Of a DNA stretch of 64,000 nt, positions 1,064 to 62,051 are shown one piece after another. The stretch's first letter is position 1. Each line of letters starts with the position of its first letter. The DNA comes from Heterodontus francisci (lineage: Eukaryota). Location: contig NC_090399.1 in NCBI RefSeq assembly GCF_036365525.1, positions 19,912,529-19,976,528 on the forward strand, in the 5' to 3' direction. The translations under genes and the position numbers were made by a program. The notes under the pieces are model-generated. The model was not told where the DNA came from, searched no databases, and was given only the letters and a program-made list of their open reading frames with translations.

Positions 1064-1133
1064 ATGGGACGGGCTCCAATTCTGTATGTTAAAGAAATTG
1101 GCTTTCCTATGCTGACAGTGTTTGGCGTCCCTG
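1064..1133 (+). CDS. GPR139/GPR142-like GPCR gene A, coding exon 1 (MGRAPILYVKEIGFPMLTVFGVP-, N-terminus and first half of TM1)
   Basis: ATG at 1064, 23 codons + 1 nt, then donor G|GTAAG. Homologous to exon 1 of genes D and E. A phase-1 join to 6753 restores the TM1 motif GVPANL. Confidence 0.85.
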
Positions 1134-1789
1134 GTAAGGCATAATGATTACTTTTCATTTTGTGTGTTATTGTTCTTGTGTTGAAAATGAAGCGGATTTA
1201 TCTGGGGGTACTCTGTTGCCATGCTACCTGTGCTCTGCTTTCACTTTCCTGAACCGCTTCTTCTATTTTATGTGTTATTTGCATTGACGTTACATTGTTT
1301 CTATTTCACTTTCTCAAACCTTCTCAGTGGAAGCATGCACCCTCTAAGTCAGTAAGTTATATTTCGCACTCTCGATAGCCCAGGCAAGTAGAGACTGGAA
1401 TGTGGCCTTCATCGCTGTATTGGTGTCCAGCCGATTAACCGTGTCTGCCTCTGAGTCAGAGTGTTTGGTTTCGGGTCCCACTCCAGATTTCTTGACTAAA
1501 TAGTGGTCAGAGCGTCGGGTCTGAATGCTGGATTGGTGTCCAGCGTGGGTGTTTGACCTGGATGCGTGTGGGTGAGTCCACCCACCATTATAACGGCCAT
1601 TTCTTTGTATTCTTGGCTTTAGTACAGCAGAAGGTATTCTGAGAATAAACAGCGCCAGCAGGAACGCACCAGCAACGCATGTGATATACTATTCCCAACA
1701 AGTGGCTCAAAAACCTTGGGTCAGTAGTCGCAGCACATTTACCGCTAAGTCAGGTTCAAGTAAAACTCGGTTCAAATCGCGATTGCAAA

Positions 1790-2020
1790 GGCATGTTCCG
1801 GAATGATTCTTCAGCGCAGCGCTGAGCGAGCGCTGCACTGTCGGATGTGCCATTCTCCAGGCGCGGTTTGCCTTTTGGGCGGACGTAGAAGATCCTATGG
1901 CACTTTTCAAAGAGCAGGGAAGTTCTCCAGCAATCATTATCCCTCAACCAACATCTAAAAAGCAGTCATTATCTAACTGTTGTTTGTTCAAGTTTGTTGA
2001 ACCAAATTGACCTCTGAATT
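1790..2020 (+). mobile_element. DeuSINE (SacSINE1/AmnSINE1-like) fragment
   Basis: GCTGCACTGTCGGATGTGCC...GGACGTAGAAGATCCTATGGCACT...TATCCCTCAACC resembles the Deu-domain core and the copy at 57380-57760. Confidence 0.6.
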
Positions 2021-2309
2021 GTGTATGTTTCGTTGTTCATTTCTTCCTTCTTTTCATTTTATATTTTTTCTTTCTTTTTGTCTGTCTTTCTTGCTTTTGT
2101 AATGCATTATCAGGAATTCAATGCTCCGACTTAACCACACGCTGCACAGCAGCCTGTCACTGTGGTTGTGCCAATACATTTTAGGCAATGATTAATAACT
2201 TACAGGTTGCATGGCTGCATACCAGATCATTCTTCTCTTTTCTTTCAGTGATTTGTCTCCATTAAAGTAATTGATACCAAAACAATCAGCTACCTAGACA
2301 GCGCATTTG

Positions 2310-3545: not shown

Positions 3546-3559
3546 AAAAAAGAAGAGTT

Positions 3560-6710: not shown

Positions 6711-6752
6711 GTTTTCGCCCTTTAATTGATCTGTTGTTTTGTGTCCTTTCAG

Positions 6753-7684
6753 CGAATCTGATGACGTCTGTGATCCTGTCCCGGGGAAAGTGCGGTCTCT
6801 CCAGGGGAATCACTCGTTACATGGTGGCGATGGCAATCTCAGACCTCATGGTGCTTATCGTTCATGTACTGCTGCAAGAAATCTTTGCTTATCATTTCCC
6901 CTATTCATTCCTGTCCCAAACTTTAATCTGCCCTTCACACACCTACCTGAAAATCATTTCTCTGGATTACTCCGTCTGGTTAACAGTGTCGTTCACCTTT
7001 GACCGTTTCATCAGCATTTGCTGTCAGAAATTGAGGCTCAGATATTGCACGGAGAGAACTGCAGCTGTGGTTATTGTGTCCATGTTTGTGCTGAGTTGTT
7101 TAAAATTCATCCCCTTCTACTTCATGTATGAGTCCAAGTTTATGATGGACAACGTATGGTGGGGTTGCAAGACAAAAAAGATCTTTTTTACTTCTGCAGG
7201 GTGGGTGACTTTCTCCTGGATTTGCAGTCTCTCCCTCTCATTCCTCCCGTTCTTTCTCATCTTGCTGCTCAATGGTCTCACGGTCAGGCACATCCTAGCG
7301 GCCAGTCGGGTCCGCAGGGTCCTGAAGGGACTGGGTAGCGGACAGAACCAGAGCGACAGCGAGATGGAAAATCGGCAGAAATCCATCATCTTACTCTTCG
7401 CTGTGTCCGGCAGTTATATACTGTTGCGGATGACGGGAACGGTGACTTTTATTTGCACTCGAATCACAGTCAATGGTTTGGACCAGAATTACACAAGTCC
7501 TGTGTACATCGCCAATGAAGTTGGTTTCTTTCTCATGCACCTGAGCTCCTGTACAAACACGTATATTTATGGTTTGACCCAGGGCAAGTTCAGAGAGGAG
7601 GTGAAGAAATCAGTTAAATATATGTTAACTCCAGTTATTAAAATAATGAAATTCAAGCGACAGCAGCCTCGGGCTCACATCTGA
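6753..7684 (+). CDS. GPR139/GPR142-like GPCR gene A, coding exon 2 (spliced product ~333 aa)
   Basis: Acceptor GTCCTTTCAG|CG. Intact frame with class A features: AMAISD (TM2), C...FTFDRF (TM3), WGC (ECL2), LPFFLILLLN (TM5), SSCTNTYIY (TM7), KFREE (helix 8). The 5' part of the ORF-track call (6605-6752) is intronic. Confidence 0.92.
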
Positions 7685-8479
7685 ATATAAGGAAACTATT
7701 CTCTCTATTCCTTCCCATCGCTTTAGTGTCCGCTTCTTTCAATGCTAACCAGATTATATTCCTTAAATAGGATCCTGCCTTTGCGTTGCACTCAAACACA
7801 ATCTTTAATCTATGCAATGAGTAGTATTTGTGTTGAATACACGCTGATGTAAAGGAATGATGAAACTGGAAGGTGTCGCAGGTTACTGTTTATTTAATAT
7901 AATAATTTGCTTTTATTTTACTGTTTATTTAATGCTTGCTTGCTTGCATCATAAGGGACATACTTTGTACAACCAATCCACGCAAACAGTGTTCAATAAC
8001 GGTAGAATGGTAACATATTCAGGCAATTTTAACCTGGTCCATCCATTAGGAAACTATTGGGATTAATTGCCAGTTTAAACCCAGTCCTATTTTGAGCTCC
8101 AGTACAATTAATATTGGACGGGTTGCAAAGCTGGTGTAACATCACATCACTGAAGATTGCAGTTGTTGGCATAAATACAAATTACACTATAAACTATTCG
8201 GTCTGAAATTGCTTAGCATAAGGATAACATATGGTGGCATTTCAATAGTGAGGCCATCATGACGCTTTGCAGCCTGTTATAGGTTCCTCGCTTTTGCCTC
8301 TTCCTACAGACAACTGTGTTGTACTAACTTGGTGAAAATTATAGGGGAACCCGTCACCCACCTGTTTGCATGGCTCCGTAAAAGTGCTTCTTGTCGCCTG
8401 GGTTAAACTGGGCAATATCAATTGAGTGAGAGTTAATGATATAGTTCACACCTTGAACACGTGGCGCTGTGCGCAACAG

Positions 8480-9990
8480 GATCCAACAGGGAAGAGATTG
8501 CCGCGCCTTTGACGATGATCTTTGCGTCCTCACTGTCCACTGGAGTAGTACCAGATGATTGGAGGGTGGCAAATGTTATTCCCTTGTTCAAGAAAGGGAA
8601 TAGGGATGACCCTGGGAATTATAGTCTTACGTCGGTAGTGGGCAAATTATTGGAGAGGATTCTGAGAGACAAGATTTATGATTATTTGGAAAAGCGTAGT
8701 TTGATTAGAGACAGTCAGCATGGCTTTGTGAGGGGCGGGTCATGCCTCACAAGCCTTATTGAATTCTTTGAAGATGTGACAAAACACGTTGATGAAGGAA
8801 GAGCAGTGGATGTGGTGTATATGGATTTTAGCAAGGCGTTTGATAAGGTTCCCCATGGTAGGCTCATTCAGAAAGTAAGGAGGCATGGGATACAGGGAAA
8901 GTTGGCTGTCTGGATACAGAATTGGCTGGCCCATAGAAGGCAGAGGGTGGTAGTAGATGGAAAGCATTCAGCCTGGAGTTTGGTGACCAGTGGTATTCCG
9001 CAGGGATCTGTTCTGGGACCTCTGCTCTTTGTGATTTTTATAAATGACTTGGATGAGGAAGTGGAAGGCTGGGTTAGCAAGTTTGCCAATGACACGAAGG
9101 TTGCTGGAGTTGTGGATAGTGTGGAAGGCTGTTGTAGGTTGCAACGGGACATTGACAGGATACAGAGCTGGGCTGAGAAGTGGCAGATGGAGTTCAACCT
9201 GGAAAAGTGTGAAGTGATTCATTTTGGAAGTTCGAATTTGAATGCAGAATACAGGCTTAAAGACAGGATTCTTGGTAGTGTGGAGGAACAGAGGGATCTT
9301 GGGGTCCATGTCCATAGATCACTCAAAGTTGCCACCCAAGTTGATAGGGTTGTTAAGAAGGCATATGGTGTGTTGGCTTTCATTAACAGGGGGATTGAGT
9401 TTAAGAGTCGCGAGGTTATGCTGCAGCTCTATAAGGCCCTGGTTCGACCACACTTGGAACATTGTGTTCAGTTCTGGTCGCCTCGTTATAAGAAGGATGT
9501 GGAAGCTTTAGAGAGGGTGCAGAGGAGATTTACCAGGATGCTGCCTGGACTGGAGGGCATGTCCTACAAAGAAAGATTGAGGGAGCTGGGGCTTTTCTCA
9601 TTGGAGCGAAGAAGGATGAGAGGTGACTTGATAGAGGCGTACAAGATGATGAGAGGCATAGATAGAGTGGATAGCCAGAGACTTTTTCCCAGGGTGGAAA
9701 GGGCTATCACCAGGGGGCATAATTTTAAGGTGATTGGAGGAAGGTTTCGGGGAGATGTCAGAGGTAGGTTCTTTACACAGAGAGTGGTGGGTGCGTGGAA
9801 TGCGCTGCCAGTGGTGGTAGTAGAAGCAGATACATTAGGGGCATTTAAGCGACTCTTGGATAGGTACATGGATGATAGTAGAATGAAGGGTAGGTAGTTA
9901 GTTTGATCTTAGAGTAGGTTAAAGGTTCGGCACAACATCGTGGGCCGAAGGGCCTGTGCTGTGCTGTACTGTTCTATGTTCTATGTTCTA
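8480..9990 (+). mobile_element. CR1 (HER1-like) LINE, 5'-truncated, RT domain
   Basis: 478-aa ORF with QHGF, DFSKAFD, PQGSVLGP and FAND (catalytic FADD mutated). (TTCTATG)n tail at ~9972-9990. Confidence 0.95.
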
Positions 9991-10074
9991 ATTGGATGGG
10001 CTGGTAAGATGGGCAGAGCAGTTGCAAATGGAATTCAACCCTCAGAAGTGTGAGGTGATGCATTTCGGGAGGAC

Positions 10075-12246
10075 ATTGCACTTTGAACTACAAGAAAGCC
10101 CCCAGCGATTTAACATCCGCAGCACTTAAAGCAGCCAGAAGTACTGCACAAAGAACAGCTAGGCGTTGCGCAAACGACTACTGGCAACACCTATGCAGTC
10201 ATATTCAGCTGGCCTCAGACACCGGAAACATCAGAGGAATGTATGATGGCATGAAGAGAGCTCTTGGGCCAACCATCAAGAAGATCACCCCCCTCAAATC
10301 TAAATCGGGGGACATAATCACTGACCAACGCAAACAGATGGACCGCTGGGTTGAGCACTACCTAGAACTGTACTCCAGGGAGAATGCTGTCACTGAGACT
10401 GCCCTCAATGCAGCCCAGCCTCTACCAGTCATGGATGAGCTGGACATACAGCCAACCAAATCGGAACTCAGTGATGCCATTGATTCCCTAGCCAGCGGTA
10501 AAGCCCCTGGGAAGGACAGCATTACCCCTGAAATAATCAAGAGTGCCAAGCCTGCTATACTCTCAGCACTACATGAACTGCTATGCCTGTGCTGGGACGA
10601 GGGAGCAGTACCCCAGGACATGCGCGATGCCAATATCATCACCCTCTATAAAAACAAAGGTGACCGCGGTGACTGCAACAACTACCGTGGAATCTCCCTG
10701 CTCAGCATAGTGGGGAAAGTCTTTGCTCGAGTCGCTCTGAACAGGCTCCAGAAGCTGGCCGAGCGCGTCTACCCTGAGGCACAGTGTGGCTTTCGTGCAG
10801 AGAGATCGACTATTGACATGCTGTTCTCCCTTCGTCAGATACAGGAGAAATGCCGTGAACAACAGATGCCCCTCTACATTGCTTTCATTGATCTCACCAA
10901 AGCCTTTGACCTCGTCAGCAGACGTGGTCTCTTCAGACTACTAGAAAAGATCGGATGTCCACCAAAGCTACTAAGTATCATCACCTCATTCCATGACAAT
11001 ATGAAAGGCACAATTCAACATGGTGGCTCCTCATCAGAGCCCTTTCCTATCCTGAGTGGTGTGAAACAGGGCTGTGTTCTCGCACCCACACTTTTTGGGA
11101 TTTTCTTCTCCCTGCTGCTTTCACATGCGTTCAAATCCTCTGAAGAAGGAATTTTCCTCCACACAAGATCAGGGGGCAGGTTGTTCAACCTTGCCCGTCT
11201 AAGAGCGAAGTCCAAAGTACGGAAAGTCCTCATCAGAGAACTCCTCTTTGCTGACGATGCTGCTTTAACATCTCACACTGAAGAATGCCTGCAGAGTCTC
11301 ATCGACAGGTTTGCGTCTGCCTGCAATGAATTTGGCCTAACCATCAGCCTCAAGAAAACGAACATCATGGGGCAGGATGTCAGAAATGCTCCATCCATCA
11401 ATATTGGCGACCACGCTCTGGAAGTGGTTCAAGAGTTCACCTACCTAGGCTCAACTATCACCAGTAACCTGTCTCTAGATGCAGAAATCAACAAGCGCAT
11501 GGGTAAGGCTTCCACTGCTATGTCCAGACTGGCCAAGAGAGTGTGGGAAAATGGCGCACTGACACGGAACACAAAAGTCCGAGTGTATCAGGCCTGTGTC
11601 CTCAGTACCTTGCTCTATGGCAGTGAGGCCTGGACAACGTATGCCAGCCAAGAGCGACGTCTCAATTCATTCCATCTTCGCTGCCTTCGGAGAATACTTG
11701 GCATCAGGTGGCAGGACTATATCTCCAACACAGAAGTCCTTGAAGCGGCCAACACCCCCAGCTTATACACACTACTGAGTCAGCGGCGCTTGAGATGGCT
11801 TGGCCATGTGAGCCGCATGGAAGATGGCAGGATCCCCAAAGACACATTGTACAGCGAGCTCGCCACTGGTATCAGACCCACCGGCCGTCCATGTCTCCGT
11901 TATAAAGACGTCTGCAAACGCGACATGAAATCGTGTGACATTGATCACAAGTCGTGGGAGTCAGTTGCCAGCATTCGCCAGAGCTGGCGGGCAGCCATAA
12001 AGACAGGGCTAAATTGTGGCGAGTCGAAGAGACTTAGTAGTTGGCAGGAAAAAAGACAGAGGCGCAAGGGGAGAGCCAACTGTGCAACAGCCCCAACAAA
12101 CAAATTTCTCTGCAGCACCTGTGGAAGAGCCTGTCACTCCAGAATTGGCCTTTATAGCCACTCCAGGCGCTGCTTCACAAACCACTGACCACCTCCAGGC
12201 GCGTATCCATTGTCTCTCGAGATAAGGAGGCCCAAAAGAAAGAAAG
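10075..12246 (+). mobile_element. RTE-clade (BovB/Expander-like) LINE, 5'-truncated, uninterrupted 701-aa RT ORF (10083-12188)
   Basis: NYRGISLLS, QCGFR, IDLTKAFD, GVKQGCVLAPTLF, LLFADD, C-terminal CxxC...HxxxC zinc finger, short 3'UTR with (AAAG)n tail. Confidence 0.95.
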
Positions 12247-13317: not shown

Positions 13318-14058
13318 GTAGGAGACTAGAAGACACTGATTTAAGGTGAATGAGAAAAGAACCAAGGGCAACAGTGAGTAGTATCTGGAATGCAGTGCCT
13401 GAGAAGGTGGTGGAACCAGATTGAATCATAGCTTTCAAAAGAGAATAGGATGAGTAGCAAAGAGAAACAAAAATCAGGGTTCGGGGAAAGGGCTCGGGGT
13501 GTGGGACTAGCTGAGTTGCTGTGACAGAGAGTCGGCATGGACACCGCGTACTGAATGGTCTCCTGTGCTGCAGCCATTCTCTATTTCCACGATTCTAATT
13601 ATGGGATGAGATTACACAAAGGCAGAGGCAATTTCATCGAAATTCTCAAGATATCACTGGGAACAGGTAGGGTAGATTGGGAAAAAGTAACTATTCCACT
13701 ATTTGAGGAGTCTAGGACCAGGGAACATAGTCTAAAAATTACAGCCAGCCATTTCAGGACTGACATTGGGAAACATTTCTTCACAGGGTGGTAGAAGTTT
13801 AGACCTCTCTTCCACAAACAGCAATGGATGTCGATCAATTGTTAATTTCCAAACTGAGACTGACAGATTTGTTTGTTAGCTAGAGGTATCAAGTGATATT
13901 TGGGCAAATTCAGGTACACGGAGTTAGGTCTTCGATCATCCCAGAGACCACTAAATGGCGGAACCAGCTCGAGGGTCTAAATGGCCTACTCATGGTCCTA
14001 TATTCTTCTGTTTGCTCCTTTTAATTGATCAATTTCCTGCTGATTGCCATCCTTTCAG

Positions 14059-15273
14059 CGAATCTGATGACGGCTGTGATCCTGTCCCGGGGAAAATGCG
14101 GTCTCTCCAGGGGAATCACTCGTTACATGGTGGCGATGGCAATCTCAGACCTCCTGGTGATGATCTTTCATGCACTGCTGGGCCAAATCTTTACTTACCA
14201 TTTTCCCCTATTCATTCCTGTCCCAAACGTTAATCTGCCCTTCATGCGCCTACCTGAGAATCATTACTCTGGATTACTCCGACTGATTTATTATTTAATT
14301 ATTTAGAGATACAGCACTGAAACAGGCCCTTCGCCCCACCGAGTCTGTGCCGATCAACAACCACCCATTTATACTAACTTTACAGTAATCCCATATTCCC
14401 TATCACCTAGGGGCAATTTACAACGGCCAATTTACCTACCAACCTGCAAGTCTTTGGATGTGGGAGGAAACTGGAGCACCCGGCGAAAACCCACGCAGAC
14501 ACAGGGAGAACTTGCAAACTCCACACAGGCAGTACCCAGAATTGAACCTAGAGCTGTGAGGCTGCGGTGCTAACCACTGTGCCACTGTGCCACCCACCTT
14601 CAACCGTTTCATCAGCATTTGCTGTCAGAAGTTGAGACTCAGATATTGCACGGAGAGAACTGCAGCTGTGGTTATTGTGTCCATGTGTGTGTTGAGTTGT
14701 TTAAAGTTCATCCCCTTTCACTTCACGTTTGAGCCCCAGTTTATTATTGACAATGTACACTGGGGCTGTCGGCCTAAACCGATCTTCTTTACTGCTGCAG
14801 GGTGGGTGACTTCCTCCTGGATTTTCAGACTCTCAGTCTCATTCCTCCCATTCTTTCTCATCTTGCTGCTCAATGGTCTCACGGTCAGGGAGATCCTAGC
14901 GGCCAGTCGGGTCCGCAGGGTCCTGAAGGGACTGGGCAGCGGACAGAACCAGATCGATAGCGAGATGGAGAATCGGCAGAAATCCATCATCTTACTCTTC
15001 GCTGTGTCCGGCAGTTATATACTGTTGTGGATGACGGAAACGGTTACTTTTATTTGCACTCGAATCACAGTCATTGGTTTGAAGCAGAATCACACCAGTC
15101 CCGCCTTCATCGCCACGGATGTTGGACGTCTGCTCATGCTCATGAGCTCCGGTGCTAACACCTGTATTTATGGATTGACCCAGAGCAAGTTCAGAGAGGA
15201 GGTGAAGAAGGCGGTTAAATATCTGCTAATTCGAGTTACTAAATTAATGAAATTAAAGCTAGAGTCGGGCTAG
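14059..15273 (+). pseudogene. GPR139-like pseudogene B (duplicate of gene A exon 2)
   Basis: Acceptor CCTTTCAG|CG. Closely similar to 6753-7684 but has an extra T at ~14201-14204 (frameshift), a SINE inserted in TM3 with loss of ~15 bp, and DRF changed to NRF. No own exon 1 found. Confidence 0.9.
14286..14594 (-). mobile_element. HE1-like tRNA-derived SINE
   Basis: Reverse complement begins GGTGGCACAGTGGCACAGTGGTTAGCACC (A-box) and ends in the CR1-like tail GAAGGGCCTGTTTCAGTGCTGTATCTCTAAAT. Matches the copy at 23885. Confidence 0.9.
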
Positions 15274-15529
15274 AGCTCATATCTGAATAAAACTGGACTG
15301 TTCTCTTCACTCCTCTCTATCACTTCACCAACCGATTCCTTCTACGCTAAGCGTATTTTATTTCTTGAGTAGGGTCCTGGTTGTACGTTGTACGAAATGT
15401 AAACGTGACTCTATGCAATGAGTAATGTGTAAGGGAATGGCGAGACCGACAGGTGTCACAGGTTTCTGCTTATTTAATGTTTGCGTGAACCTTGGCGGAT
15501 ACATCGTGTAACAAGCGACCACTGCATCA

Positions 15530-16285: not shown

Positions 16286-16348
16286 TAACTCACAATAATT
16301 GTTCCAGGGTGAGGATGCACCTGGGAAAGTGCGTATAGTTTTAGGCAC

Positions 16349-17750
16349 TAAAATGAAAGCAAAATACTGCGGATGCTGGAAATCTGAAATAAAAACAAGA
16401 AATACTGGAACCACTCAGCAGGTCTGGCAGCATCTGTGGAAAGAGAAGCAGAGTTAACGTTTCGGGTCAGTGACCCTTCTTCGGAACTGACAAATATTAG
16501 AAATGTAAAAGGTTATAAGCAAGTGAGGCGGGGGTGGGGCAAGAGATAACAAAGGAGAAGGTGTAGATTGGACAAGGCAACATAGCTGACCAAAAGGTCA
16601 TGGAGCAAAGGCAAACAATATGTTAACGGTGTGTTGAAAGACAAAGCATTAGTACAGATAAGGTGTTAACGGCCTGAATATTGAACAGCAGCAAGTGCAA
16701 ACCTGAAAAAAAAAAACAGTGGGTAAGCAAACTGAACAAACTAAGATGAAATGAAATAAATGCAAAAAAAAAGATTGTAAAAAATGTAAAAAAGAAAAAA
16801 ATTGAGAAGGCAAAGTAACTAAAAATGAAAGTAAAATGGGGGCTGTCATGCTATGAAATTATTGAACTCAATGTTCAGTCCAGCAGGCTGTAGTGTGCCT
16901 AATTGGTAGATAAGATGCTGTTCCTCGAGCTTGCGTTGATGTTCACTGGAACACTGCAGCAATCCCAGGACAGAGATGTGAGCATGAGAATAGGGAGGAG
17001 TGTTGAAATGGCAAGGAACCGGAAGCTCAGGGTCCTGCTTGTGGACTGAGCAGAGTTGTTCCGCAAAGCGGTCACCCAGTCTGCGCTTGGTCTCCCCAAT
17101 GTAGAGGAGACCACACTGTGAGCAGCGAATACAGTATACTACATTGAAAGAAGTACAAGTAAATTGCTGCTTCACCTGAAAGGAGTGTTTGGGGCCTGGG
17201 ATAGTGAGGAGAGAGGAGGTAAATGGGCAGGTATTACACCTCCTGCGATTGCAGGGGAAGGTGCCCTGGAACGGGGACGAGGTGGTGGGGGTAATGGAGA
17301 AGTGGACCAGGGTGTCGTGGAGGGAATGATCCCTTCGGAATGCTGACAGGGGAAGGGAGGGGAAGATGCATTTGGTAGTGGCATGACGCTGGAGGTGGCA
17401 GAAGTGGCGGAGGATGATCCTTCGGATATGGAGGCTGAAGGGGTGGAAAGTGAGGACAAGGGGAACCCTGTCACGGTTCTGGGAGGGAGGGGAAGGGTTG
17501 AGGGCAGAAGTGCGGGAAATGGGCCGGACACGGTTGAGGGCCCTGTCAACAACAGTGGGGGGGAATCCTCGGTTGAGGAAAAAGGAGGTCATATCAGAAG
17601 CACCATCATGGAAGGTAGCATCATCAGAGCAGATGCGTCAGAGACAGAGAAACTGGGAGAATGGAATGGAGTCCTTACAGGAGGTAGGGTGTGAAGAAGT
17701 GTAGTCGAGGTAGCTGTGGGAGTCGGTGGGCTTATAATGGATAGGTTGTC
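16349..17750 (-). mobile_element. Penelope-like element, 5'-truncated (RT thumb + GIY-YIG endonuclease + pseudo-LTR)
   Basis: ORF 16846-17592 contains NVVYCIRCSQCGLLYIGETKRRLGDRF...GLN (GIY-YIG). Upstream frame has YKPTDSHSYLDYTSSHP. Terminal repeat at 16349-16490. Confidence 0.92.
16452..16488 (-). ncRNA. Minimal type I hammerhead-ribozyme-like motif in the Penelope pseudo-LTR
   Basis: Minus strand reads AGUU-CCGAAGA-A-GGGUC(ACU)GACCC-GAAAC-GUU-AACU: stem I, core with a U4>C variant, stem II, palindromic stem III. Confidence 0.55.
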
Positions 17751-18099
17751 TACTAATTTGCATAAATTTGGCGGTAATTTGCATTGGCCAGCTGGTAAAG
17801 TCGAGCAATAGATCACTCGGCCATTGATGAGCTCGTCCGATTTTGGCCCCCATTGATTTTTATGTTAATGGCATCGGTCCGGTTCTATATCACTGGGCAG
17901 GCAGTCAACGCCTCCAAATTACAAAGCATGTGATGAAAGTGAAAATGGACCCTCTGTCATTTGCCTTTAGTACTGAGCTGTGGCTCAGTCGGTCGCAATC
18001 TTTCCTTTGAGTCGGAATATCTTGCGTTCCCCTCCCATTTAAGTGAGTTGAGTCCATACTGTCAGCGGCCGTTTTGGTGCAATATTTGTGAAGTGATGC

Positions 18100-18880
18100 G
18101 ATATTGTAGAATCATGGAATGGTTACAGCACAGAAGGAAACCATTCTTCACGTCGTGTCCATGCCAGTTCTCAGGGAGTGCAGCACAGCTAGTCCCATTC
18201 CCCTCTCTTTTCCCCTGAGCCCAGCATTTTTCTCTTCAGTTGAATATTGAACTCACATTTGAAAGCCACGATTGAAACTACCTCCCAGATTCCCAGACAG
18301 TGCATTCCAGATCCTAACCACTCGCTGCTTAATATTTTCCCCATGTCGCCTCTGGGTCTTTTCCCAATCACCTTAAATCGGTATTCTCTGGTCTCCACTT
18401 TTTTGCCAATGAGAATTGTTTCTCCCTATCTATTTTGTCCATTCCCCTCATGATTTTGAACACTTCTATCAAATCTCCTCCCAACCTTCTCCTCTCAAAC
18501 CCGAACAGTCCCAGCATCGCCAAGCTATCAATGTAAATGAAGTCCTTCAGCCCCAGAATCATTCTCCAAAACTTTGTCTTCATCCTCTTCAATTCCTCAC
18601 ATCATTCCTAAAGCATGCTGCCCTGAATTGGATTCAATAATCCAGTTGAGTCCGAGTCAATGTTTTATAATGGTTTTACATAGCTTCCTTACGCTTCTAC
18701 TCTATGCCTCTCTCTCTGAAGCCCAGGATCCGTACACCTTATTAACCAAATTCTTAACCTGCCCTGCAAACATAAACAAAAGTGCACATATACCTGCAGG
18801 ACCCTCTGCCCCTGTCAATCCTTTCGAATTGCATCCATTATTTTATATTGTCTTTCCTCATTCTTCCGACCACCTTTTTA
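18100..18880 (-). mobile_element. Degenerate CR1 3' fragment shared by paralogous introns
   Basis: RRLGGDLIEVFKIMRGMDKIDREK. Homologous copies at ~47560-48330 and ~60790-61560. Confidence 0.85.
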
Positions 18881-19194
18881 ATGAAACGTTTAAAAAATAA
18901 CTGATGCGATTTAATTTGCATACAAATACAATACAGGTTCTGCTGGCCATAATCGTCACACTGCGAAAGTTTGAATAAATATAGTACTATTCACGTATGG
19001 GGTAATGTTCACTTTCCATTAACATCAATGAGCAAGAAATATGGAAGAGGTGCAAAATGTAGGGTCTATTTGATATCAGTTGTTTTTTTGCCTGGCAATG
19101 GAAGTTAAAAATGTTTTCAATGTTTCTATTTACATTGAATGGGAAATAAACAGCACTAATCTGTAATAGGAAAATAACATTTTTATATTTTTAT

Positions 19195-20108
19195 ATTTGA
19201 CACGAAAATTGGTAGTGTTGTAAATAGTGAGGAGGAAAGCCTTAGTTACAGGACGATATAGATGGGCTGGTAAGATGGGCGGAGCCGTGGCAAATGGAAT
19301 TTAATCCTGAGAAGTGTGAGGTGATTCATTTTGGGAGGATTAACAAGGCAAGGGAATAAACAATGGATGGTAGGGCCCTAGGAAGTACAGAGGGTCAGAG
19401 GGACCTTGATGTACTTGTCCATAAATCACTGAAGGCAGCAGCACAGGTAGATAAGGTGGTTAGGAAGGCATTTGGGATACTTACCGCCATTCGCCGAGGC
19501 ATAGAATATAAGAGCATGGAGGTTATGCTGGAGCTGTATAAAACGCTAGTTAGGCCACAGCTGGAGTATTATGTACAGTTCTGGACGATAGAAAGGATGT
19601 GATTGCACTGGAGAGGGTGCAGAGGAGATTCACCAGGACGTTGCCTGGGCTGGAGCGTTTCAGCTATGAAGAGAGACTAAAAAGGCGAGGGTTGTTTTCC
19701 TTAGAGCAGAGAAGGCTGAGGCGGGACCTGTTGGAGGTATACAAGATTATGAGGGGCATTGAAAGGTTAGATAGGAAGAAACTTTTTCCATTAGCAGAGG
19801 GGTCAATAACCAGGGGGCATAGATTTAAGGTAAGGGGCAGGAGGTTTAGAGGGGATTTGAGGAAAACAATTTTCACCCAGAGGGTGGTTGAGATCTGGAA
19901 TACACTGCCTGAAGAGGTGGTAGAGGCAGGAACTCTCACAACATTTAAGAAGTATCTAGATGAGCACTTGAAATGCCATAGCATACAAGACGACAGGCCA
20001 AGTGCTGGAAATGGGATTAGAGTAGGTCGGTGCTTGATGGCTGGCATAGACACGATGGGCCGAAGGTCCTGTTTCTGTGCTGTACAACTCTATGACTCTA
20101 TGACTCTA
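19195..20108 (+). mobile_element. CR1 3' fragment inserted only in the intron of copy C
   Basis: CR1 C-terminal ORFs (19363-20159) and a (CTATGACT)n tail. Absent at the homologous positions in genes D and E. Confidence 0.9.
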
Positions 20109-20591
20109 TATCTTAACGTAATCGAACCGGAAGAAACTGAACAACATTGGGCTGAATGAACATCCCACAGAGTCCATGAGCTTCTGAACCAGCATGTTTT
20201 ATTAACAATGCTCCCATTGATTGTTTCATATCAGGAAATCATAAAGTTACCACAGGGAAAAAATGTTTGGCAAAGAGAGGGCGAACGTTACACCAGCTGC
20301 TATGTGACACGTTATTATAATCGAGGTTCACGATTAGCTAAAATAAAAGCAAAGGACTGCAGATGCTGGAAATCTGAAATAAAAACAAAAAGTGCTGGAA
20401 ATATTCAGCAGGTGTGGCAGGATCTGTGGAGAGAGAAGCAAAGTTAACCTTTCAGGTCTGAGAGCTTTCATCCCGCCCCCGCCCCCGCAAATCCAAGTCT
20501 TGTCATTCTTCACACCAGATTTCCAACTTGCTGTCAGTGTTCATCTCTGTTGAATGTTCTGTTAAATTTCCTGTTTTTGCATTTCTCCCAG

Positions 20592-21490
20592 CAAACCTCC
20601 TGTCAGTTTTGGTTCTTTTCCAAAGGAAATGCGGTCTTTCCAAAGGAATCACTCGTTATATGATGGCCATGGTAGTGGGAGACCTCATGGTCCTTATCTT
20701 TAATGTTATTGTGAACCAAATCATCAAGTATCATTTTCCAGATTCACTGCTGAACTACACTTCCGCGTGTCGTTTTACTGTCTTCATGCAAGGGTTTAGC
20801 ATTCAGCTCTCTATCTGGTTCACAATGTCGTTCACCTTTGACCGTTTCGTCACAATTTGTTGCCAGAAATTGAAATCAAGATATTGCACCGAAAGGACAG
20901 CCACCATGGTTGTAACGACCATGTGTGTGCTCAACATTTTGATCAATATTCCCATGCCTTTCCGCTATGAACCCGATTATATTCTCAACAATATACAGTG
21001 GGGCTGCCGCACCATCACAGGATATTTTACTTCACCCGCATGGAAGGTTCACCAATGGATTACAAACCTCTCAAGTACATTACTTCCAATTCCTTTGCTG
21101 CTGCTGTTGAACTCTCTCACCGTCAGGCACATTTTATTAGCCAGTGGAGCTCGCAAAACCCTGAAGAGCCACAACAATGGAAAAACCGGCAGTGATCCCG
21201 AGATGAAGAACAGAAGAACATCCATCATTCTACTCTTTGCTATCTCGGGCACTTTTATTGTGTTGTCGGCGCCTATTACCGTAATACACATCTGTGTCGG
21301 TGTCACACAGACAGTCACTTTCCAAGGTTCAAACTCACTTTATTTAGCAATTAGAATCACATTTCTGTTGATGTGCTCCAGCTCCTGTACAAACACTTGT
21401 ATTTATGCACTGACACAAAGGAGATTCAGAGCGGAGATCAGGAATATGGTGAAATATCCGTATTATCTCATTGTTAAATTATTTAAATAA
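20592..21490 (+). CDS. GPR139/GPR142-like GPCR copy C, intact coding exon 2 with no adjacent exon 1 (orphan exon or young pseudogene)
   Basis: Acceptor TTTCTCCCAG|CA, open frame to TAA, highly similar to genes D and E (AMVVGD, FTFDRF, WGC, SSCTNTCIY, RFRAE). Confidence 0.75.
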
Positions 21491-23884: not shown

Positions 23885-24207
23885 GGCGGCACAGTGGTGC
23901 AGTGGTTAGCACCGCAGCCTCACAGCTCCAGCGACCCGTGTTTAATTCTGGGTACTGCCTGTGTGGAGTTTGCAAGTTTTCCCTGTGTCTGCGTGGGTTT
24001 TCTCCTGGTGCTCCGGTTTCCTCCCACAAGCCAAAAGACTTGCAGGTTGGTAGGTAAATTTGCCATTATAAATTGCCCCTAGTAGGGAAATATAGGGACA
24101 CGTGGGGATGTGGTAGGAATATAGGATTAGTATAAATGGGTGGTTGATGGTCGGAACAGACTCGGTGGGCCGAAGGGCCTGTTTCAGTGCTGTATCTCTA
24201 AACTAAA
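23885..24207 (+). mobile_element. HE1-like tRNA-derived SINE, full length
   Basis: GGCGGCACAGTGGTGCAGTGGTTAGCACC head and GGGCCGAAGGGCCTGTTTCAGTGCTGTATCTCTAAACTAAA tail, which is shared with CR1 3' ends in this window. Confidence 0.9.
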
Positions 24208-26640: not shown

Positions 26641-26894
26641 AGGAATGTTTGATTGAATCAAATATGGCAAGGGCAGGGTGAACCTTTACCAGTTCGGATA
26701 CTGTACGGATTCTCTCACCTGTAATCAGTTAAATCTGTGGCCACTGAAGTTCGTACCTTCTCGTTCTACTTGACCTAGAACTGTACCAGTGAGACAGAGA
26801 GGGATGTGCAATGGGTGCCACTTTACATCACTGATCTATTTCTTCGGTAATTTTCTTATTTCCAATTTCTTACAGTCATCTTGATCTCAGTTGT

Positions 26895-27105
26895 GAGCAG
26901 CCCACTGTCTTCTGTCAGTAATATAGTGGGGCTCATAACGGAAATAAATGGCAATGTTCAGAAAAAAGCTGAGTGCACACACCGCCGTTAGAACCACAGG
27001 GACAGCTCTTTCGTTGCATTATTTTAATTTTAGTTTCTAACAACAAATGGCTACGAAATGGTCAAAAGTGAACAGCGTTGAAGATCAGACAGAGAATTGG
27101 ATGCT
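26895..27105 (-). pseudogene. Highly decayed GPR139-like exon 2 fragment F (TM3-ECL2)
   Basis: Minus-strand translation SIQFSV*SSTLFTFDHFVAICC*KLKLK*CNERAVPVVLTAVCALSFFLNIAIYFRYEPHYITDRRQW aligns with copies C-E. Three in-frame stops. Confidence 0.85.
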
Positions 27106-37411: not shown

Positions 37412-37870
37412 AACTCCCTCCATTTTATATGTAGTGGGGAAGCTCATTCTATTTCCTTTATAGACAGGGATCTCCCTCCATTTTATACATAGAAGGTTAT
37501 CTCCCTCCATTTTGTACGTCGGGGGTGGAGGGGGGTGGGGGCGGTGGTGGCGGGGAAGCTCGCTGCTTTTTATACATTGAGCAGGAGCCCCATCCATTTT
37601 ATATGTAGAAGGGGAGCTCCCTCCATTTTATATGTAGAGGGGTAGCACCCTCCATTTTATATGTAGAAGGGGAGCTCCCTGCATTTTATACATAGTGGTG
37701 GAGGTCCCTCCATTTCATACGTAGAGGGGGAGCCCCCTCCATTTTATATGTAGAGGGGGAGCTCCTCCATTTGATATGTAGTTCGGGAGCTCCCTCCATT
37801 TTATACATAGATGGCGAGTTCCATCCATTTTATACGTAGAGCGGGAGCTCCCTGCACTTTATATGTAGAC
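37412..37870. repeat. 29-bp minisatellite (CTCCCTCCATTTTATATGTAGARGGGGAG)n, ~14 diverged units
   Basis: Head-to-tail units, interrupted once by a G-rich insert at ~37520-37556. Confidence 0.9.
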
Positions 37871-45546: not shown

Positions 45547-46451
45547 TCAAAAACATTTAAATAATTTAACAATGAGATAATACGGATATTTCACCATATT
45601 TTTGATCTCCGCTCTGAATCTCCTCTGTGTCAGTGCATAAATACAAGTGTTAGTACAGGAGCTGGTGCACATCAACAGAAATGTGATTCTAATTGCCAAA
45701 TAAAGTGAGTTTGAACCTTGAAAAGTGACTGTCTGTGTGACACCGACGCAGATGTGTATTACGGTAATAGGGGCCGACAACACAATAAAAGTGCCCGAGA
45801 TAGCAAAGAGTAGAATGATGGATGTTCTTCTGTTCTTCATCTCGGGATCACTGCCGGTTTTTCCATTGTTGTTGCTCTTCAGGGCTTTGCGAGCTCTACT
45901 GGCTACTAAGATGTGCCTGACGGTCAGAGAGTTCAACAGCAGAAGCAAAGGAATTGGAAGTAATGCACTTGAGAGGTTGGTAATCCATTGATGGACCTTC
46001 CATGCGGGTGAAGTAAAATATCCTGTGACGGCGCGGCAGCCCCACTGTATATTGTTGAGAATATAATCGGGCTCATAGCGGAAAGGCATGGGAATATTGA
46101 TCAAAATGTTGAGTACACACACCGTCGTTAGAACCATGTTGGCTGTTCTTTCGGTGCAATATCTTGATTTCAGTTTCTGGCAACAAATTGTGACGAAGCG
46201 GTCAAAGGTGAAGGACATTGTAAACCAGATAGAGAGCTGAATGCTAAACCCTTGCATGAAGGCAGTAAAACGACACGCGGAAGTGTAGTTCAGCAATGAA
46301 TCTGGAAAATGATACTTGATGATTTGGCTCACAATAACATTAAAGATAAGGACCATGAGGTCTCCCACCGCCATGGCCATCATATAACGAGTAATTCCTT
46401 TGGAAAGACCGCATTTCCTTTGGAAAAGAATCAGAAATGACAGCAGGTTTG
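45547..46451 (-). CDS. GPR139/GPR142-like GPCR gene D, coding exon 2 (spliced product ~322 aa)
   Basis: Minus-strand acceptor TTTCTCCCAG|CA and intact TM1b-TM7 frame. The ORF-track extension to 46695 is intronic. Confidence 0.92.
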
Positions 46452-46755
46452 CTGGGAGAAATGCAAAAAACAGGAAATTTAACAAAATATTTGGCAGAGA
46501 AGCACATTGGCAGCAAGTTGGAAATTTGGTGTTAAGAATGACGAGACTGGGATTTGCGGGGGTGGGGTGGGGGCTGGGGGGAGCGGGGGTGGGGGGGGGG
46601 TGGGTAATTTTAGCCTTGTGTGACAGTGTAAAATAGCAGTATCTAATTGGCCATCCATTTTCTTTTCCATGGAAGTAATTGAAAGGGAATAACAAGCATA
46701 ATGTACAATGGGTGGTGAATTCATATTACTCATTTCACAATAAAGCTAAAGTTAA

Positions 46756-46998
46756 TAAAAACAAAAAGGTGCTGGAAATACTCAGCAGGTCTGGCAGCAT
46801 CTGTGGAGACAGAAGCAAAGTTAATGTTTCCGGTCAGTGACCTTTCATCAGAACACATCAGTTCTGAAGAAGGGTCAGTGACCTGAAGTGTTAACTTTGC
46901 TCCTGGCTCCACAGGTGCTGCCAGACCTGCTGAGTGTTTCCAGCACTTTTTGCTTTTATTTCAGTTTTCCAGAAGCTGCAGTATTTTGCTTTTATTTT
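46756..46998. repeat. Penelope-derived palindromic insertion in the intron of gene D
   Basis: Two inverted copies of the Penelope terminal repeat, flanked by AGCTAA(T)AGTTAA. The empty site is present in gene E at ~60170. Confidence 0.85.
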
Positions 46999-48755: not shown

Positions 48756-48819
48756 CAGGCATACCAACAGCGGCAAGAATGAGGTGGAAAATTTCTATCG
48801 GAAGTGTTTGTCGTCCCAT
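48756..48819 (-). CDS. GPCR gene D, coding exon 1 (MGRQTLPIEIFHLILAAVGMP-)
   Basis: ATG at 48819, 21 codons + 1 nt, donor G|GTAAGT. Phase 1 matches exon 2. Confidence 0.9.
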
Positions 48820-48872
48820 ATTCTCCGAATACCAGGAGCGGTTGATACGAGGCAATGCACTGAAACAACCTC

Positions 48873-49001
48873 ATTTATACACGAGCCAATCGTCCAGTGA
48901 GAGAGTGAGGCCACAGAACCGGTGTCATTAGCTTTATGCTTTCGAACAAACAAGTTACTACATCTCTTCATAAACCAGCAATTAACGTGAACTCACCGAT
49001 C
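48873..49001 (-). promoter_or_regulatory. Putative promoter of gene D (TATA box, CCAAT box, conserved upstream blocks)
   Basis: TATAAAT at 48879-48873, CCAAT at 48886-48890, TGTTTGTT at 48952-48945, GATCGGTGAGTTCAC at 49001-48987. Conserved in genes A and E. Confidence 0.65.
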
Positions 49002-57370: not shown

Positions 57371-57379
57371 CTTGCTGCA

Positions 57380-57760: not shown

Positions 57761-59004
57761 GGGATTACATATCAAGCCATTTTGTGAGTTGGGCATTGAA
57801 GTTCACTTCTGTCCCTCGCTTTCCTCCAAGTTTCCTGCTATCAAATTGATCTGCAGAAATGCAGATTTACCAGTTAGGTGCAGGTGGTGATCAGAATGCG
57901 AGATCCTCGACCTTACTTCACCCAAGGCCACGGCAATCCATATTGATGGTTCCCAGCAGTTGTTTTCTGTTTCAGATTTCTGGCATTTGGAGTCCTTGAG
58001 ATTTGTTTTTTCCAGTAAAGAAAATCAGTCTTTTTTCTAATTTGAGTTATATAAGTATGTTTGTATTTTTTCATGGCATTTGAACGTTACTGTCAAAGCA
58101 AAAAATCGTAGCCTGTCTCCCCAGGCACAGATAAGTTATATTTTCTGTCCTAAATCTCTTTCATTTACTCTCTAGATCTATGTTCACTACTAAAAGACCC
58201 ATCAAACTTTGCATCTATCTATTGTTTTCGATCCTTTCATAACTGTAAACATCTATATTAATTCAGCCTGTAATCTCTTCTGATTGAAAACGATCCATTT
58301 TTCACTTTTGTATTTATTCATTCCGACATCATCCTCGTGAGTCTACTACGCTGTGCCCTCACTATTACATCCAACTCAACAACAGTAATGAGTCCAGAAC
58401 GGCACACATGTCTGCCACTTGGGTCTCACTAAGGTCTGGTATAGATTCACCACTAAATCTCTACATTCATTTCTATAACACCTGCAATAAAACACAATAT
58501 CACATTGTTTTTATGGTGATCTGGCTCTTGAGGTGCTGTTTTAGATAGATTCCTGATTGAAAAGGGAGTTAGAGCTACATCAGGTAGACAGGAAAGTAGA
58601 GTTGAGGCCACAACCAGATCTGCCATGATCTTATCAAATGGCGGAGCAGGCTCGAAGGAACGAATGACCTGCTTCTGCTCCAGATTCGGATGTTAGTATG
58701 TTTAAAGATCATTTTAACCTGCCAAGGCGCGCTGCTGATTCACGTAATCCTGCAATCCCGCATTCAAAGTGCGTGGACATTAATAACCGGAAAACGAACA
58801 GTAAACAGTAAAGAACAGTAACCAGAGATTCTGAAGGGGATGATTCTGCCTCCTCAACTTGGTCAAATTCTTTGAGGAATTTATAAATCAAGTGGATTTT
58901 CCCAAAATATGAGATGCGATGCAATTAGAACGTCAAACGACATTGTGAAAGTTGCAACGAAAATGCCAGGTAATTAATTTTAGATTGATTTCATTTATTT
59001 TATT

Positions 59005-59906
59005 TCAAAAAAAAAATAATTTAACAATGAGATAATACGGATATTTCACCATATTTTTGATCTCCGCTCTGAATCTCCTCTGTGTCAGTGCATAAATACA
59101 AGTGTTTGTACAGGAGCTGGAGCACATCAACAGAAATGTGATTCTAATTGCCAAATAAAGTGAGTTTGAACCTTGGAAATCGACTGTCTGTGTGACACCG
59201 ACACAGATGTGTATTACGGTAATAGGCGCCGACAACACAATAAAACTGCCCGAGATAGCAAAGAGTAGAATGATGGATGTTCTTCTGTTCTTCATCTCGG
59301 GATCACTGCCGGTTTTTCCATTGTTGTGGTTCTTCAGGGCTTTGCGAGCTCTACTGGCTACTAAGATGTGCCTGACGGTGAGAGAGTTCAACAGCAGCAG
59401 CAAAGGAATTGGAAGTAATGCATTTGAGAGGATAGTAATCCATTGGTGAACCTTCCATGCGGGTGAAGTAAAATATCCTGTGATGGTGCGGCAGCCCCAC
59501 TGTATATTGTTGAGAATATAATCGGGCTCATAGCGGAAAGGCATGGGAATATTGATCAAAATGTTGAGCACACACACGGTCGTTATAACCATGGTGGCTG
59601 TCCTTTCGGTGCAATATCTTGATTTCAATTTCTGGCAACAAATTGCGACAAAACGGTCAAAGGTGAACGACAGTGTGAACCAGATAGAGAGCTGAATGCT
59701 AAATCCTTGCATGAGGGCACTAAAACGACACGCGGAAGTGTAGTTCAGCAATGAATCTGGAAAATGATACTTGATGATTTGGCTCACAATAACATTAAAG
59801 ATAAGGACCATGAGGTCTCCCACTGCCATGGCCATCATATAACGAGTGATTCCTTTGGAAAGACCGCATTTCCTTTGGAAAAGAACCAGAAATGACAGCA
59901 GGTTTG
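59005..59906 (-). CDS. GPR139/GPR142-like GPCR gene E, coding exon 2 (spliced product ~321 aa)
   Basis: Acceptor TTTCTCCTAG|CA and intact frame with the same 7TM motifs. Confidence 0.92.
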
Positions 59907-61987
59907 CTAGGAGAAATGCAAAAACAGGAAATTTAACAGAACATTCAACAGAGATGTACACTGACAGCAAGTTGGAAATCTGGTGTTAAGAATCATAAGA
60001 CTGGGAGTTGCAGGGTGGGGGAGCCGGGGGTAATTTTAGCCTTGTTTGACGGTGTCAAATAGTGGTATCTAATTAGCTATCCATTTCCCCCCCAAGGAAG
60101 TAATTGGAAGGGGGTAACAGGCTGAATGTTCAAGGGGCGGTGAATTCAATATTACCCATTTCACAATATAGCTAATAGTTAACCTGGATTGGAATAAATT
60201 GTCTCATAGCAGCTGCTGCAAACTTCCCCATCTTCTTGCCGTACATTTTTTTTCCCCGTGGTAACTTTATGATATCCTCACATGAAACAATTAATAGAAG
60301 CCATTTGGAAGTAACTTGCTGAGTTGGAAGCTCATGGATTCTATGGGATGCTCGTTCCACCCAATGTTGTCCTCAGTGACTTCAATAGAGAAGAAAATCA
60401 GGCGGGACGTAAAAGCGGACTTGCATCCAATGCCATCAGTTTCCTACGGTTGGATTAGGTTAAAACATATAAATTTTCTTTTTGTATTGCTAATTAGTGC
60501 TGTTTATCTCCCTGTCAATGCAAATCGAAACATTGGGAACATTTTTAACTTCCAATGCCGGGCAAAAAATCAATTGATATCAAATGGGCCCCGTATTTTA
60601 CAGCCCTTCCGTCTTTCTTGCGCATTGATGTCAATACAAAGTGAAAATTACCCCATACGTGAATAGTGCTAGATTTAATTCAACATTTAGCAGAATGATG
60701 ATTGTATCCAGCTGAACCAGTACTGCATTTTTATTAAAATAAAATCACATCAGTTAATTTTTAACGTCGCATAAAATGATGATTTCAAGAATGAGGAAAG
60801 GCAATAAAAAATAATGGTTAAACAATTCTAGAGGTGGTGCAGGAGCAGAGGGTTCTGGCGGGAATGTGGGGGACGGGTGTATGAGCACAAATCGTTGAAG
60901 GTGACAGGGCAGGTTAAGAAAGTGGTTAATAAGGAATACGGATCCTGGGCTTTATAGATAGAGGCATAGAGTAGAAAAGCAAGGAAGTTATGTCGGGCCA
61001 TTATAAAACACTGGCTCGGCCTCAGCTGGAGTATTCTATACAATTCTGGGCGCCATGCTTTAGGAAGGATGTGAAAGCATTGAAGAGAGTGCAGAAAATA
61101 TTTACAAAATGGTTCTGGGGATGAGGGACTTCATTTACTGCTCTGTTGGGACTATTCTGCTTAGAGAAGAGATAATTGAGAGGAGATTTGATAGAGGTAT
61201 TCAAAATCATGAGGGGACTGGACAGATTAGATAGAGAGAAACTGTTCCCATTGGCGGGAGGGTCGAGAATCAGAGGACACCGATTTAAGGCGTTTGGTGA
61301 AAGAATGAAAGGTGACACGAGGAAAAGTTAACTTACGCGGTGAATGGTTTGGATCTGGAATGTACTGCTGAGAGTGTGGTGAAGGCAGATTGAATTGTGG
61401 CTTTCAAAAGGGAATTGAATATTTATCTGAAGAGAAAATTGCTGGGCTCAGGGGGAAAGACAGGGGAATGGGAGGAGCTGTGCTGCACTCCCTGAGACCT
61501 GGCATGGACACGACATGATGAATGGTTTCCTTCTGTGCTGTAACCATCCTATAATTCTACAATATCGCATCACTTCACCAATATTGCATCGAAATGAGGG
61601 CTTACAGTATGAACTCAACTCACGGACATGGGAGAGAAACGCAAGATTATCCAAATCAAATCAAAGATTGCGACCGACTGAGCCACAGCTCAGTACGAAA
61701 GGCAAATGCCATCGGGTCCATTTTCACTTTCACCACCAGCTTTGTAATGTGGAGGGGTTGACTGCCCGCCCAGTGATATAGAACCGGACTGAGCCATTAA
61801 CATAAAAATCAATGGGGACGAAAATCGGACGAGCTCATCAATGGGCGAGCGTTCTATTGCTCGACTTTGCCACCTGGCCAATGCAAATTACCGCCACAAA
61901 GGCAACAACAACAAAAACACGTATGGAAAATAATAATGCAGTTTAGTAATGGTGCACTAACTTCCAGGATGGCTTGCAATTACTTAC

Positions 61988-62051
61988 CAGGAATGCCAAC
62001 AACTACGAGAATCGGATACAAAATTTCTATCGGAAGTGCTTGCCGTCCCAT
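61988..62051 (-). CDS. GPCR gene E, coding exon 1 (MGRQALPIEILYPILVVVGIP-)
   Basis: ATG at 62051, 21 codons + 1 nt, donor G|GTAAGT. Confidence 0.9.

Follow-up and report, generated by a model that had tools for sequence, protein, structure and literature searches.

Receptor genes and gene remnants in the window

The window analyzed here, a 64,000-nucleotide stretch of Heterodontus francisci contig NC_090399.1, contains six receptor units, and tblastn with the window's own exons detected no others at E<1e-4. Units A, D and E are complete genes, unit C consists of exon 2 alone, and B and F are pseudogenes (Table 1). The five long units match the Pfam model 7tm_1 above its cut-off, and E-values between units reach 1e-89, so that their kinship is not due to chance. 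The tblastn and Pfam results confirm the six units of the original prediction (three complete genes, one orphan exon and two pseudogenes), and its two subfamilies (A/B and C/D/E/F) in both orientations are borne out by the strands and by the protein identities, which are 49–50 % for A versus C/D/E and 93–95 % among C/D/E.

Table 1 Receptor units and associated features in the 64-kb window
Feature	Position	Strand	Remarks
Gene A, exon 1	1064..1133	+	Carries the start codon and a GT donor; 23 codons plus 1 base, covering the first half of TM1
Gene A, exon 2	6753..7684	+	Encodes the remainder of the receptor (7TM); reading frame open as far as the stop codon
Pseudogene B, exon 2	14059..15273	+	Frameshift of 1 bp near 14201; carries an insertion
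Repeat inserted in B	14289..14594	.	~300 bp; 83 % like the copy at 23885-24202
Retroelement-like ORF	16846..17637	-	Occupies the expected place of C exon 1
Remnant intron 1 of C	17769..20591	+	D/E homology begins ~90 nt inside the D/E intron
Unit C, exon 2	20592..21490	+	Intact, open, with acceptor
Pseudogene fragment F	26890..27105	-	72-codon TM3-ECL2 remnant, in-frame stops, C/D/E-type
Gene D, exon 2	45547..46451	-	
Gene D, exon 1	48756..48819	-	
Gene E, exon 2	59005..59906	-	
Gene E, exon 1	61988..62051	-	

In all three complete genes, a GT-AG phase-1 intron lies inside TM1, and the TM1 proline is preceded by only 21–23 residues. Splicing, predicted from consensus sites and database models of relatives, yields putative products of 333 (A), 322 (D) and 321 (E) amino acids. 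The AlphaFold model of E is a 7TM protein (pLDDT 87), and the fold search gave TM-scores of about 0.7 to peptide receptors. Elsewhere in the window, retroelement protein matches span 16,103 of the 64,000 bases, 21 further ORFs yielded no host gene and two sub-threshold Pfam matches, and Rfam produced no match.

The duplicates and broken copies in the window support the birth-and-death mode of evolution proposed for this cluster, which would have grown by segmental duplication and lost copies through truncation and repeat insertion. Motif scan, blastn and tblastn found no exon 1 of C in the window. The ORF that takes its place has no Pfam match and is, from one of its motifs, presumably Penelope-like. 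Splicing of A exon 1 to C exon 2, which agree in strand and phase, was considered and is unsupported; because C retains an intron remnant of the D/E type, it is more likely that C simply lost its first exon. Pseudogene B, which lacks exon 1, is a partial duplicate of A exon 2 with its flanks (13384-15478) and carries an insertion that we take from its size to be SINE-like; with a dN/dS of 0.64 against A, it looks dead on arrival. Fragment F is 48–51 % like C/D/E versus 39 % for A. The coding exons of C/D/E are 95–96 % alike versus 82–88 % for the flanks, and the pairwise dN/dS values, from only three close coding sequences, range from 0.19 to 0.65, all below 1. Differences among these three sequences fall on 5 of the 24 pocket positions versus 22 of the 274 others (P=0.053), and the E lineage shows, in small counts, 10 nonsynonymous versus 2 synonymous changes.

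A receptor family of cartilaginous fishes

A protein search produced 1602 matches at E<=0.001 among 3212 candidates, and the best 120 were examined and counted by hand. All but one of these 120 are named elasmobranch proteins (16 species, 48–84 % identity), in support of a shark origin and of the predicted expansion in that lineage. At least 39 of the best 120 matches belong to Heterodontus francisci, where they lie on 14 different sequences, and at least 29 to Heptranchias perlo, numbers drawn from database proteins, some of which may be models of pseudogenes or of allelic copies. When two single-copy relatives were searched in the same way, 145 and 25 matches were obtained. A member from the chimaera Callorhinchus falls inside the family core (support 99/98) and, judged from sequence, the family is chondrichthyan-wide, its members being automatically named ‘probable GPR139’. 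Both the A-type and the C/D/E-type subfamilies have ray or skate counterparts in the tree and thus have been maintained since the shark–ray split. With the two deepest rows included, support for monophyly of the family is weak (81/63). Atlas searches returned ‘probable GPR139’ clusters along with Srw/FMRFamide-type neighbors, which we treat as leads only. We found no published description of the family in the open-access literature searched.

Relationship to GPR139 and to single-copy paralogs

The description of these receptors as GPR139/142-like holds insofar as GPR139 is the nearest solved receptor by family profile (82.7 bits, with the next at 61.8), but they are not GPR139 co-orthologs. 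Profiles of two related clades, I and II, also rank GPR139 first, a result in keeping with membership in the GPR139/142–MIP/FMRFamide/proctolin receptor superclade; gene A alone does so only marginally (E 1.6e-6), and fold searches, which establish class A and no more, place GPR139 at ranks 15 and 21, not separated from other peptide receptors. Orthology is rejected given the structural-alignment identity of ~22 % and the existence of a true catshark GPR139 that is 81.3 % identical to that of mouse; zebrafish GPR139 is reported to be 70 % identical to the mammalian protein. Furthermore, GPR139 and GPR142 are present in one copy per genome, as against dozens for the shark family. The likenesses include the two coding exons reported for GPR139 and the missing proline 7.50, which is threonine in the shark family. 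Residue 1 of the shark model aligns to GPR139 residue 44, and the C3.25-ECL2 cysteines, present in 98 % of the family, find no cysteine opposite them in the aligned GPR139 chain. None of the six GPR139 ligand residues (E108, F109, H187, W241, R244, N271) is found in A, C, D or E, and W6.48 is the only one common across the family. As the aromatic amino-acid site is not kept, amino-acid sensing, one of the functions originally proposed, is not transferable from GPR139/142.

In trees built without canonical GPR139/142 or named invertebrate references (a motif check found no GPR139 or GPR142 among the 432 proteins compared), clade II is the sister of the shark family (support 99/97), and a grouping of the family with clade I to the exclusion of clade II is rejected (p-AU 0.0065). 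Clade II comprises amphibian and sturgeon proteins (e.g., XP_069092602.1), with one match per species among the matches listed; clade I includes sharks, coelacanth, bony fish, amphibians and reptiles (e.g., XP_005988539.1). Both clades are likewise automatically named ‘probable GPR139’, and share about 30 % identity with the shark family. The phylogeny thus places the window genes as descendants of a separate paralog that is still carried by amphibians and sturgeon. The single-copy paralogs of clades I and II have an equally short N-terminus, so this feature is ancestral; the near absence of an extracellular N-terminus is real, but we reject it as a sign of chemosensation.

Predicted pocket and cytoplasmic face

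The predicted diversification was examined at 24 standard pocket positions, numbered sequentially from anchor residues, as mean pairwise identity. In the family (141 rows), the predicted pocket is 0.26 identical versus 0.55 for all TM columns, in a sample biased toward matches of A and E; none of 10,000 random TM sets was as low, and against outer-TM columns P=0.0004. The single-copy relatives, for which orthologs are compared instead of paralogs, in contrast show a conserved pocket: 0.75 versus 0.68 for TM in clade I (92 rows), and 0.96 versus 0.80 in clade II (23 rows). Pocket hypervariability persists when the rows are thinned to <70 % and <55 % identity and is also seen among 41 Heterodontus paralogs and 9 Pristis paralogs, and the 141 family members have 138 distinct pocket strings. 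Identity is 0.68 in the cytoplasmic half and 0.40 in the outer half. The signaling motifs are kept: D2.50 in 92 % of members, DRF in 99/99/93 %, P5.50 in 98 % and Y7.53 in 97 %, with N7.49 also retained. P6.50, by comparison, survives in 6 %. Position 6.48 is Trp in 94 % of members and Arg in gene A, and 84 % have Asp at 3.37. A hypervariable predicted pocket above a conserved cytoplasmic face is the signature of a repertoire.

Possible functions of the family

Taken together, these observations suggest that the window holds a tandem cluster of two-exon class A GPCRs of cartilaginous fishes that serve as a repertoire for sensing outside chemicals, a reading to which we assign a probability of roughly 50 %; that the family is an undescribed set of chemical sensors appears likely from its sequences. 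Each copy would bind different small ligands, as the pocket divergence implies, and the intact motifs suggest coupling to G proteins, so that all copies may signal through one such pathway in chemosensory cells. Asp 3.37 and the ligands of the GPR139/MIP-receptor clade point to amine- or peptide-like ligands. By analogy, the site would be a sensory epithelium (olfactory, oral or skin), and for olfactory or taste use we see about even chances. A look-up with E exon 2 listed no RNA data set that carries it. Three possibly-RNA contig sets aligned to gene A (80 % likeness) gave mostly matches to repeats and reach depths of 0.3-10.6 over part of exon 2; exon 1 is uncovered, and no exon 1-exon 2 joint is among the joints listed. 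In a catshark library of brain plus olfactory epithelium, the 50 most specific genes include no GPCR, and known olfactory receptors are likewise absent (PMC11979771). Text matches to the family were absent from the supplements of PMC13188829 (8 files), PMC8455134 (12 of 24), PMC5568229 (10 of 20) and PMC12361510 (11 of 12), which cover few tissues.

Clustering, pseudogenes and pocket divergence would also fit a barrier or immune repertoire that corresponds to the MRGPRs and formyl-peptide receptors of mammals and detects microbial or irritant peptides, its cells being granulocytes, mast-like cells or somatosensory endings. The turnover within single species, exemplified by the distinct pockets of the Pristis paralogs, suits a host–microbe race, and MAS1 and related receptors are reported to be missing from cartilaginous fishes (PMC8455134), which leaves an MRGPR-like role vacant. 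This alternative is nevertheless rather unlikely because class A is all that the family shares by sequence with MRGPRs, FPRs and chemokine receptors, with GPR139 leading by 21 bits, and because it goes unmentioned in the supplements searched, few as the tissues covered were. A set of internal sensors for nutrients or peptide hormones, comparable to GPR142 in gut and islets or GPR139 in brain and diversified toward endogenous peptides or the contents of the gut, is less probable still. The nearest characterized relatives are Trp/Phe sensors of gut, pancreas and brain (PMC7318219), aromatic neuropeptides are ligands in the wider clade (PMC8557429), and the nearly fixed pocket of the single-copy sister is what one conserved ligand would produce; however, the window proteins lack the GPR139 ligand residues, and the number of pocket strings far exceeds what an unchanging set of endogenous ligands would require.

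A mostly non-adaptive origin of the copies, amplified in repeat-rich DNA while constraint on the pocket was relaxed and few of them worked, would account for the three of six units that are broken or partial, the retroelement content of the window and the apparent death on arrival of B. We regard it as very improbable, given that divergence is concentrated in the pocket, where identity drops below that of neighboring outer-TM columns, the cytoplasmic face is conserved, coding exons are more conserved than their flanks, and the subfamilies persist in sharks and rays. Fast-evolving clustered receptors are often reproductive, and chemosensing in sperm, testis or oviducal gland, or of mate cues outside the nose, would be compatible with membership of the sex peptide receptor in the invertebrate clade (PMC12208981), but nothing in our analysis points to gonads and this role is the least probable of all.

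The repertoire for outside chemicals might extend much further. Tentatively, and with the balance of probability against it, the family could be the seventh of the vertebrate chemoreceptor families: a GPR139-related gene, still single in amphibians and sturgeon, would have multiplied to tens or hundreds of copies that form the main odorant or taste repertoire of sharks, rays and chimaeras, in which it would outnumber OR, TAAR, V1R and V2R. Cartilaginous fishes have a mean of 43.8 complete genes for olfactory-type receptors, fewer than any other vertebrate group (PMC10869828). They have also been described as having few GPCRs overall. Were the family their main odorant or taste repertoire, the mismatch between keen smell and a small known repertoire would be resolved. 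Expression in sensory cells would establish a new vertebrate chemoreceptor family and help explain shark smell; immune or somatosensory expression would reveal an independent counterpart of the MRGPRs. In either case, the automatic label has concealed at least 39 distinct proteins of one shark, and the single-copy sister gene of Xenopus and axolotl makes the ancestral ligand approachable in the laboratory.

Comparison with known chemoreceptor families

All 45 aligned members match 7tm_1, one of them also weakly matching the olfactory model 7tm_4 (E 0.0013), and none matches the Pfam V1R or taste models, so membership in the OR, V1R or taste families is rejected. No amine receptor is among the 60 best PDB matches of the family profile, TAAR being a group that lacks its own Pfam model. 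The shark family belongs to none of the OR, TAAR, V1R/ORA, V2R/OlfC, T1R and T2R families, which it resembles in its tandem clusters, pseudogenes, variable pocket and constant cytoplasmic face, and differs from them in its coding intron within TM1. The nearest invertebrate matches score on Srw, the Pfam model of a nematode chemoreceptor family, whereas the shark proteins themselves do not (0 of 45). The expansions of MRGPRs and FPRs in mammals and of srw receptors in nematodes are precedents for the conversion of a peptide-receptor lineage into a sensory repertoire, each of an origin independent of the shark family.

Receptor units and repeats in the window

The six related receptor units claimed in the original prediction were recovered: A, D and E are complete, C consists of exon 2 only, and B and F are pseudogenes. 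No other genes besides these units and retroelements were found within the 64-kb window. In A, D and E, a short exon 1 with a phase-1 GT donor within the first transmembrane helix (TM1) is followed by an open exon 2, the splicing being predicted from sequence. No exon 1 for C was detected in the window; its homology to the D/E intron begins ~90 nt past the D/E donor, directly beside a retroelement-like ORF. Given that exon 2 of C is still open and that its private changes (8 synonymous, 10 nonsynonymous) yield a ratio of 0.39, exon 1 might have been lost recently, or else gene conversion or an alternative first exon might preserve C. Unit B duplicates only part of A and carries both a ~300-bp repeat insertion and a frameshift of 1 bp; its dN/dS of 0.64 against A matches the expectation for a copy dead from birth. 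F is a 72-codon remnant carrying stops. C and D are copies of one block in inverted orientation (90 % over 3.3 kb); for D and E the copies are direct (79–85 % across several kb).

Coordinates of receptor units and other elements in the window
Feature	Exon 1	Exon 2 or extent	Strand
Gene A	1064-1133	6753-7684	+
Gene D	48819-48756	46451-45547	-
Gene E	62051-61988	59906-59005	-
Unit C, open		20592-21490	+
~95 bp 5' of exon 1		886-981, 48870-48960, 62100-62200	
485-aa RT ORF, then 709-aa RT ORF		8440-12188	
29-bp minisatellite, at least 11 copies, between F and D		37380-37869	
1-kb CT-rich microsatellite tract, between F and D		38470-39514	
Short inverted-repeat elements, 155–208 bp		46754-46960, 29687-29841	
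Related copies of inverted-repeat elements		16348-16490, 20338-20472	

Exon 2 of gene A encodes Arg at position 6.48, which is Trp in 94 % of the family and in the pseudogene copy B; activation of A may be impaired or altered. In the ~95-bp segments 5' of exon 1, A matches D/E at 70 % even though the two subfamilies are older than the shark–ray split, making these segments a candidate shared promoter element. Both RT ORFs match Pfam RVT_1; we take the 485-aa ORF to be CR1-type and the 709-aa ORF, which is open and probably a young insertion, to be of the RTE type. The inverted-repeat elements are 85 % self-complementary, and one lies within the D intron.

Family size and relation to GPR139

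A search with the A exon 2 protein produced 1602 matches at E ≤ 0.001 among 3212 candidates. Of the best 120 of these, to which the taxonomic assignment refers, 119 are named elasmobranch proteins from 16 species, nearly always labeled 'probable G-protein coupled receptor 139', in agreement with the predicted lineage-wide expansion. By hand count, these 120 include at least 39 90 %-identity clusters from Heterodontus francisci, spread over 14 sequences, and at least 29 from Heptranchias perlo. An exhaustive search with E exon 2 gave 94 representatives (50 % identity) at E ≤ 1e-30. Among the 30 looked up, all 17 named ones with at least 34 % identity are chondrichthyan (including one from Callorhinchus milii), 1 further is unnamed, and those at ~31 % or below come from coelacanth, salamanders, teleosts and invertebrates. 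Several public gene models (P0014, P0041, P0050, P0122) join pieces of adjacent paralogues, so that family counts and lengths in databases are unreliable. No published account of the expansion was found in the full-text literature searched, mostly without subscription journals; one genome paper excluded families of >100 copies ahead of its expansion test (PMC12361510), a possible reason why such a family went unnoticed.

Distant matches of the shark family led to two conserved genes, clade I and clade II, both annotated as 'probable GPR139'. The clade I search gave 145 matches, of which the best 120 listed span sharks, coelacanth, sturgeon, teleosts, amphibians, turtles and squamates, with none from mammals or birds. 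Clade I (P0220, P0285, P0234 and relatives) is a conserved, apparently single-copy GPR139-like orphan that retains R6.51 (100 %) and an acid at 2.61, as in GPR139; two of its models are fused to TMEM183A, suggesting that the genes adjoin. Clade II (P0225, P0403-P0422) is a second unnamed orphan, whose pocket hardly varies among frogs, salamanders and caecilians; sturgeon has a copy too. Its search returned 25 matches: 20 amphibian clusters at 66–100 %, one per named species, the sturgeon protein at 46 %, and four shark/skate family members at 32–33 %. P0249 from Engraulis represents a third GPR139-like type, 34 % identical to clade I and above the Pfam Srw cut-off.

In trees built without canonical GPR139 and GPR142, clade II is recovered as the sister group of the shark family, with clade I outside (support 99 in a 73-row quick tree and 99/97 in a 32-row careful tree); the alternative grouping of the family with clade I was rejected (p-AU 0.0065). 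Support is 99/98 for the family core and a weak 81/63 for monophyly once the two deepest rows, from catshark, are included; both window subfamilies have partners in ray or skate. Judging from these sequence comparisons, the lineage reaches beyond chondrichthyans, with a sister gene in amphibians and sturgeon that is testable in Xenopus.

Human GPR139 is the best solved-structure match of the family profile (82.7 vs 61.8 bits) and likewise of clades I and II. The family is nevertheless not GPR139 itself because the catshark carries a separate true GPR139, 81.3 % identical to that of mouse according to the supplement of PMC13200729. Together with the trees, these observations indicate a GPR139-related paralogous lineage.

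Divergent predicted pocket and conserved cytoplasmic face

E is confidently modeled as a seven-helix bundle that, in a fold search, resembles peptide receptors generally. None of the six GPR139 residues reported to bind Trp/Phe and agonists (PMC7318219, PMC12775434) is kept in any window protein (0/6 in each). Across 141 rows (family proteins of length 280–400, at least 90 % covered, plus four window exons), mean pairwise identity is 0.26 at 24 standard positions of the predicted pocket vs 0.55 over TM columns. The single-copy controls show the reverse, with 0.75 vs 0.68 in clade I (92 rows), whose overall divergence is close to that of the family (0.60 vs 0.53), and 0.96 vs 0.80 in clade II (23 rows). 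The low pocket identity of the family persists after thinning, against outer-TM columns only, and within one species; of 14 TM2–TM5 pocket positions compared between A and E, none is shared. Conversely, the cytoplasmic half, the DRF motif and the TM5–TM6 junction are conserved. Such a combination would fit many ligands across copies feeding one output. Pairwise dN/dS among C, D and E is 0.19–0.65, with a borderline pocket enrichment of differences; these values do not demonstrate positive selection. We put the probability that the family is a functional, ligand-diversified receptor repertoire at about 0.85. The short N-terminus noted originally is present but loses its value as a functional clue because clades I and II have it too (median of 23–25 residues before the TM1 proline in all three groups).

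Possible role

For the proposed use in external chemosensation we see roughly even odds. Analogy speaks for it, as does the small size of the olfactory-type receptor repertoire known from cartilaginous fishes (PMC10869828). The main rival is a barrier role like that of MRGPRs, which gains weight from the reported absence of MAS1 relatives in cartilaginous fishes (PMC8455134); gut or endocrine sensing, comparable to that by GPR142, ranks third. According to the whale shark paper, GPCRs are scarce in this group of fishes.
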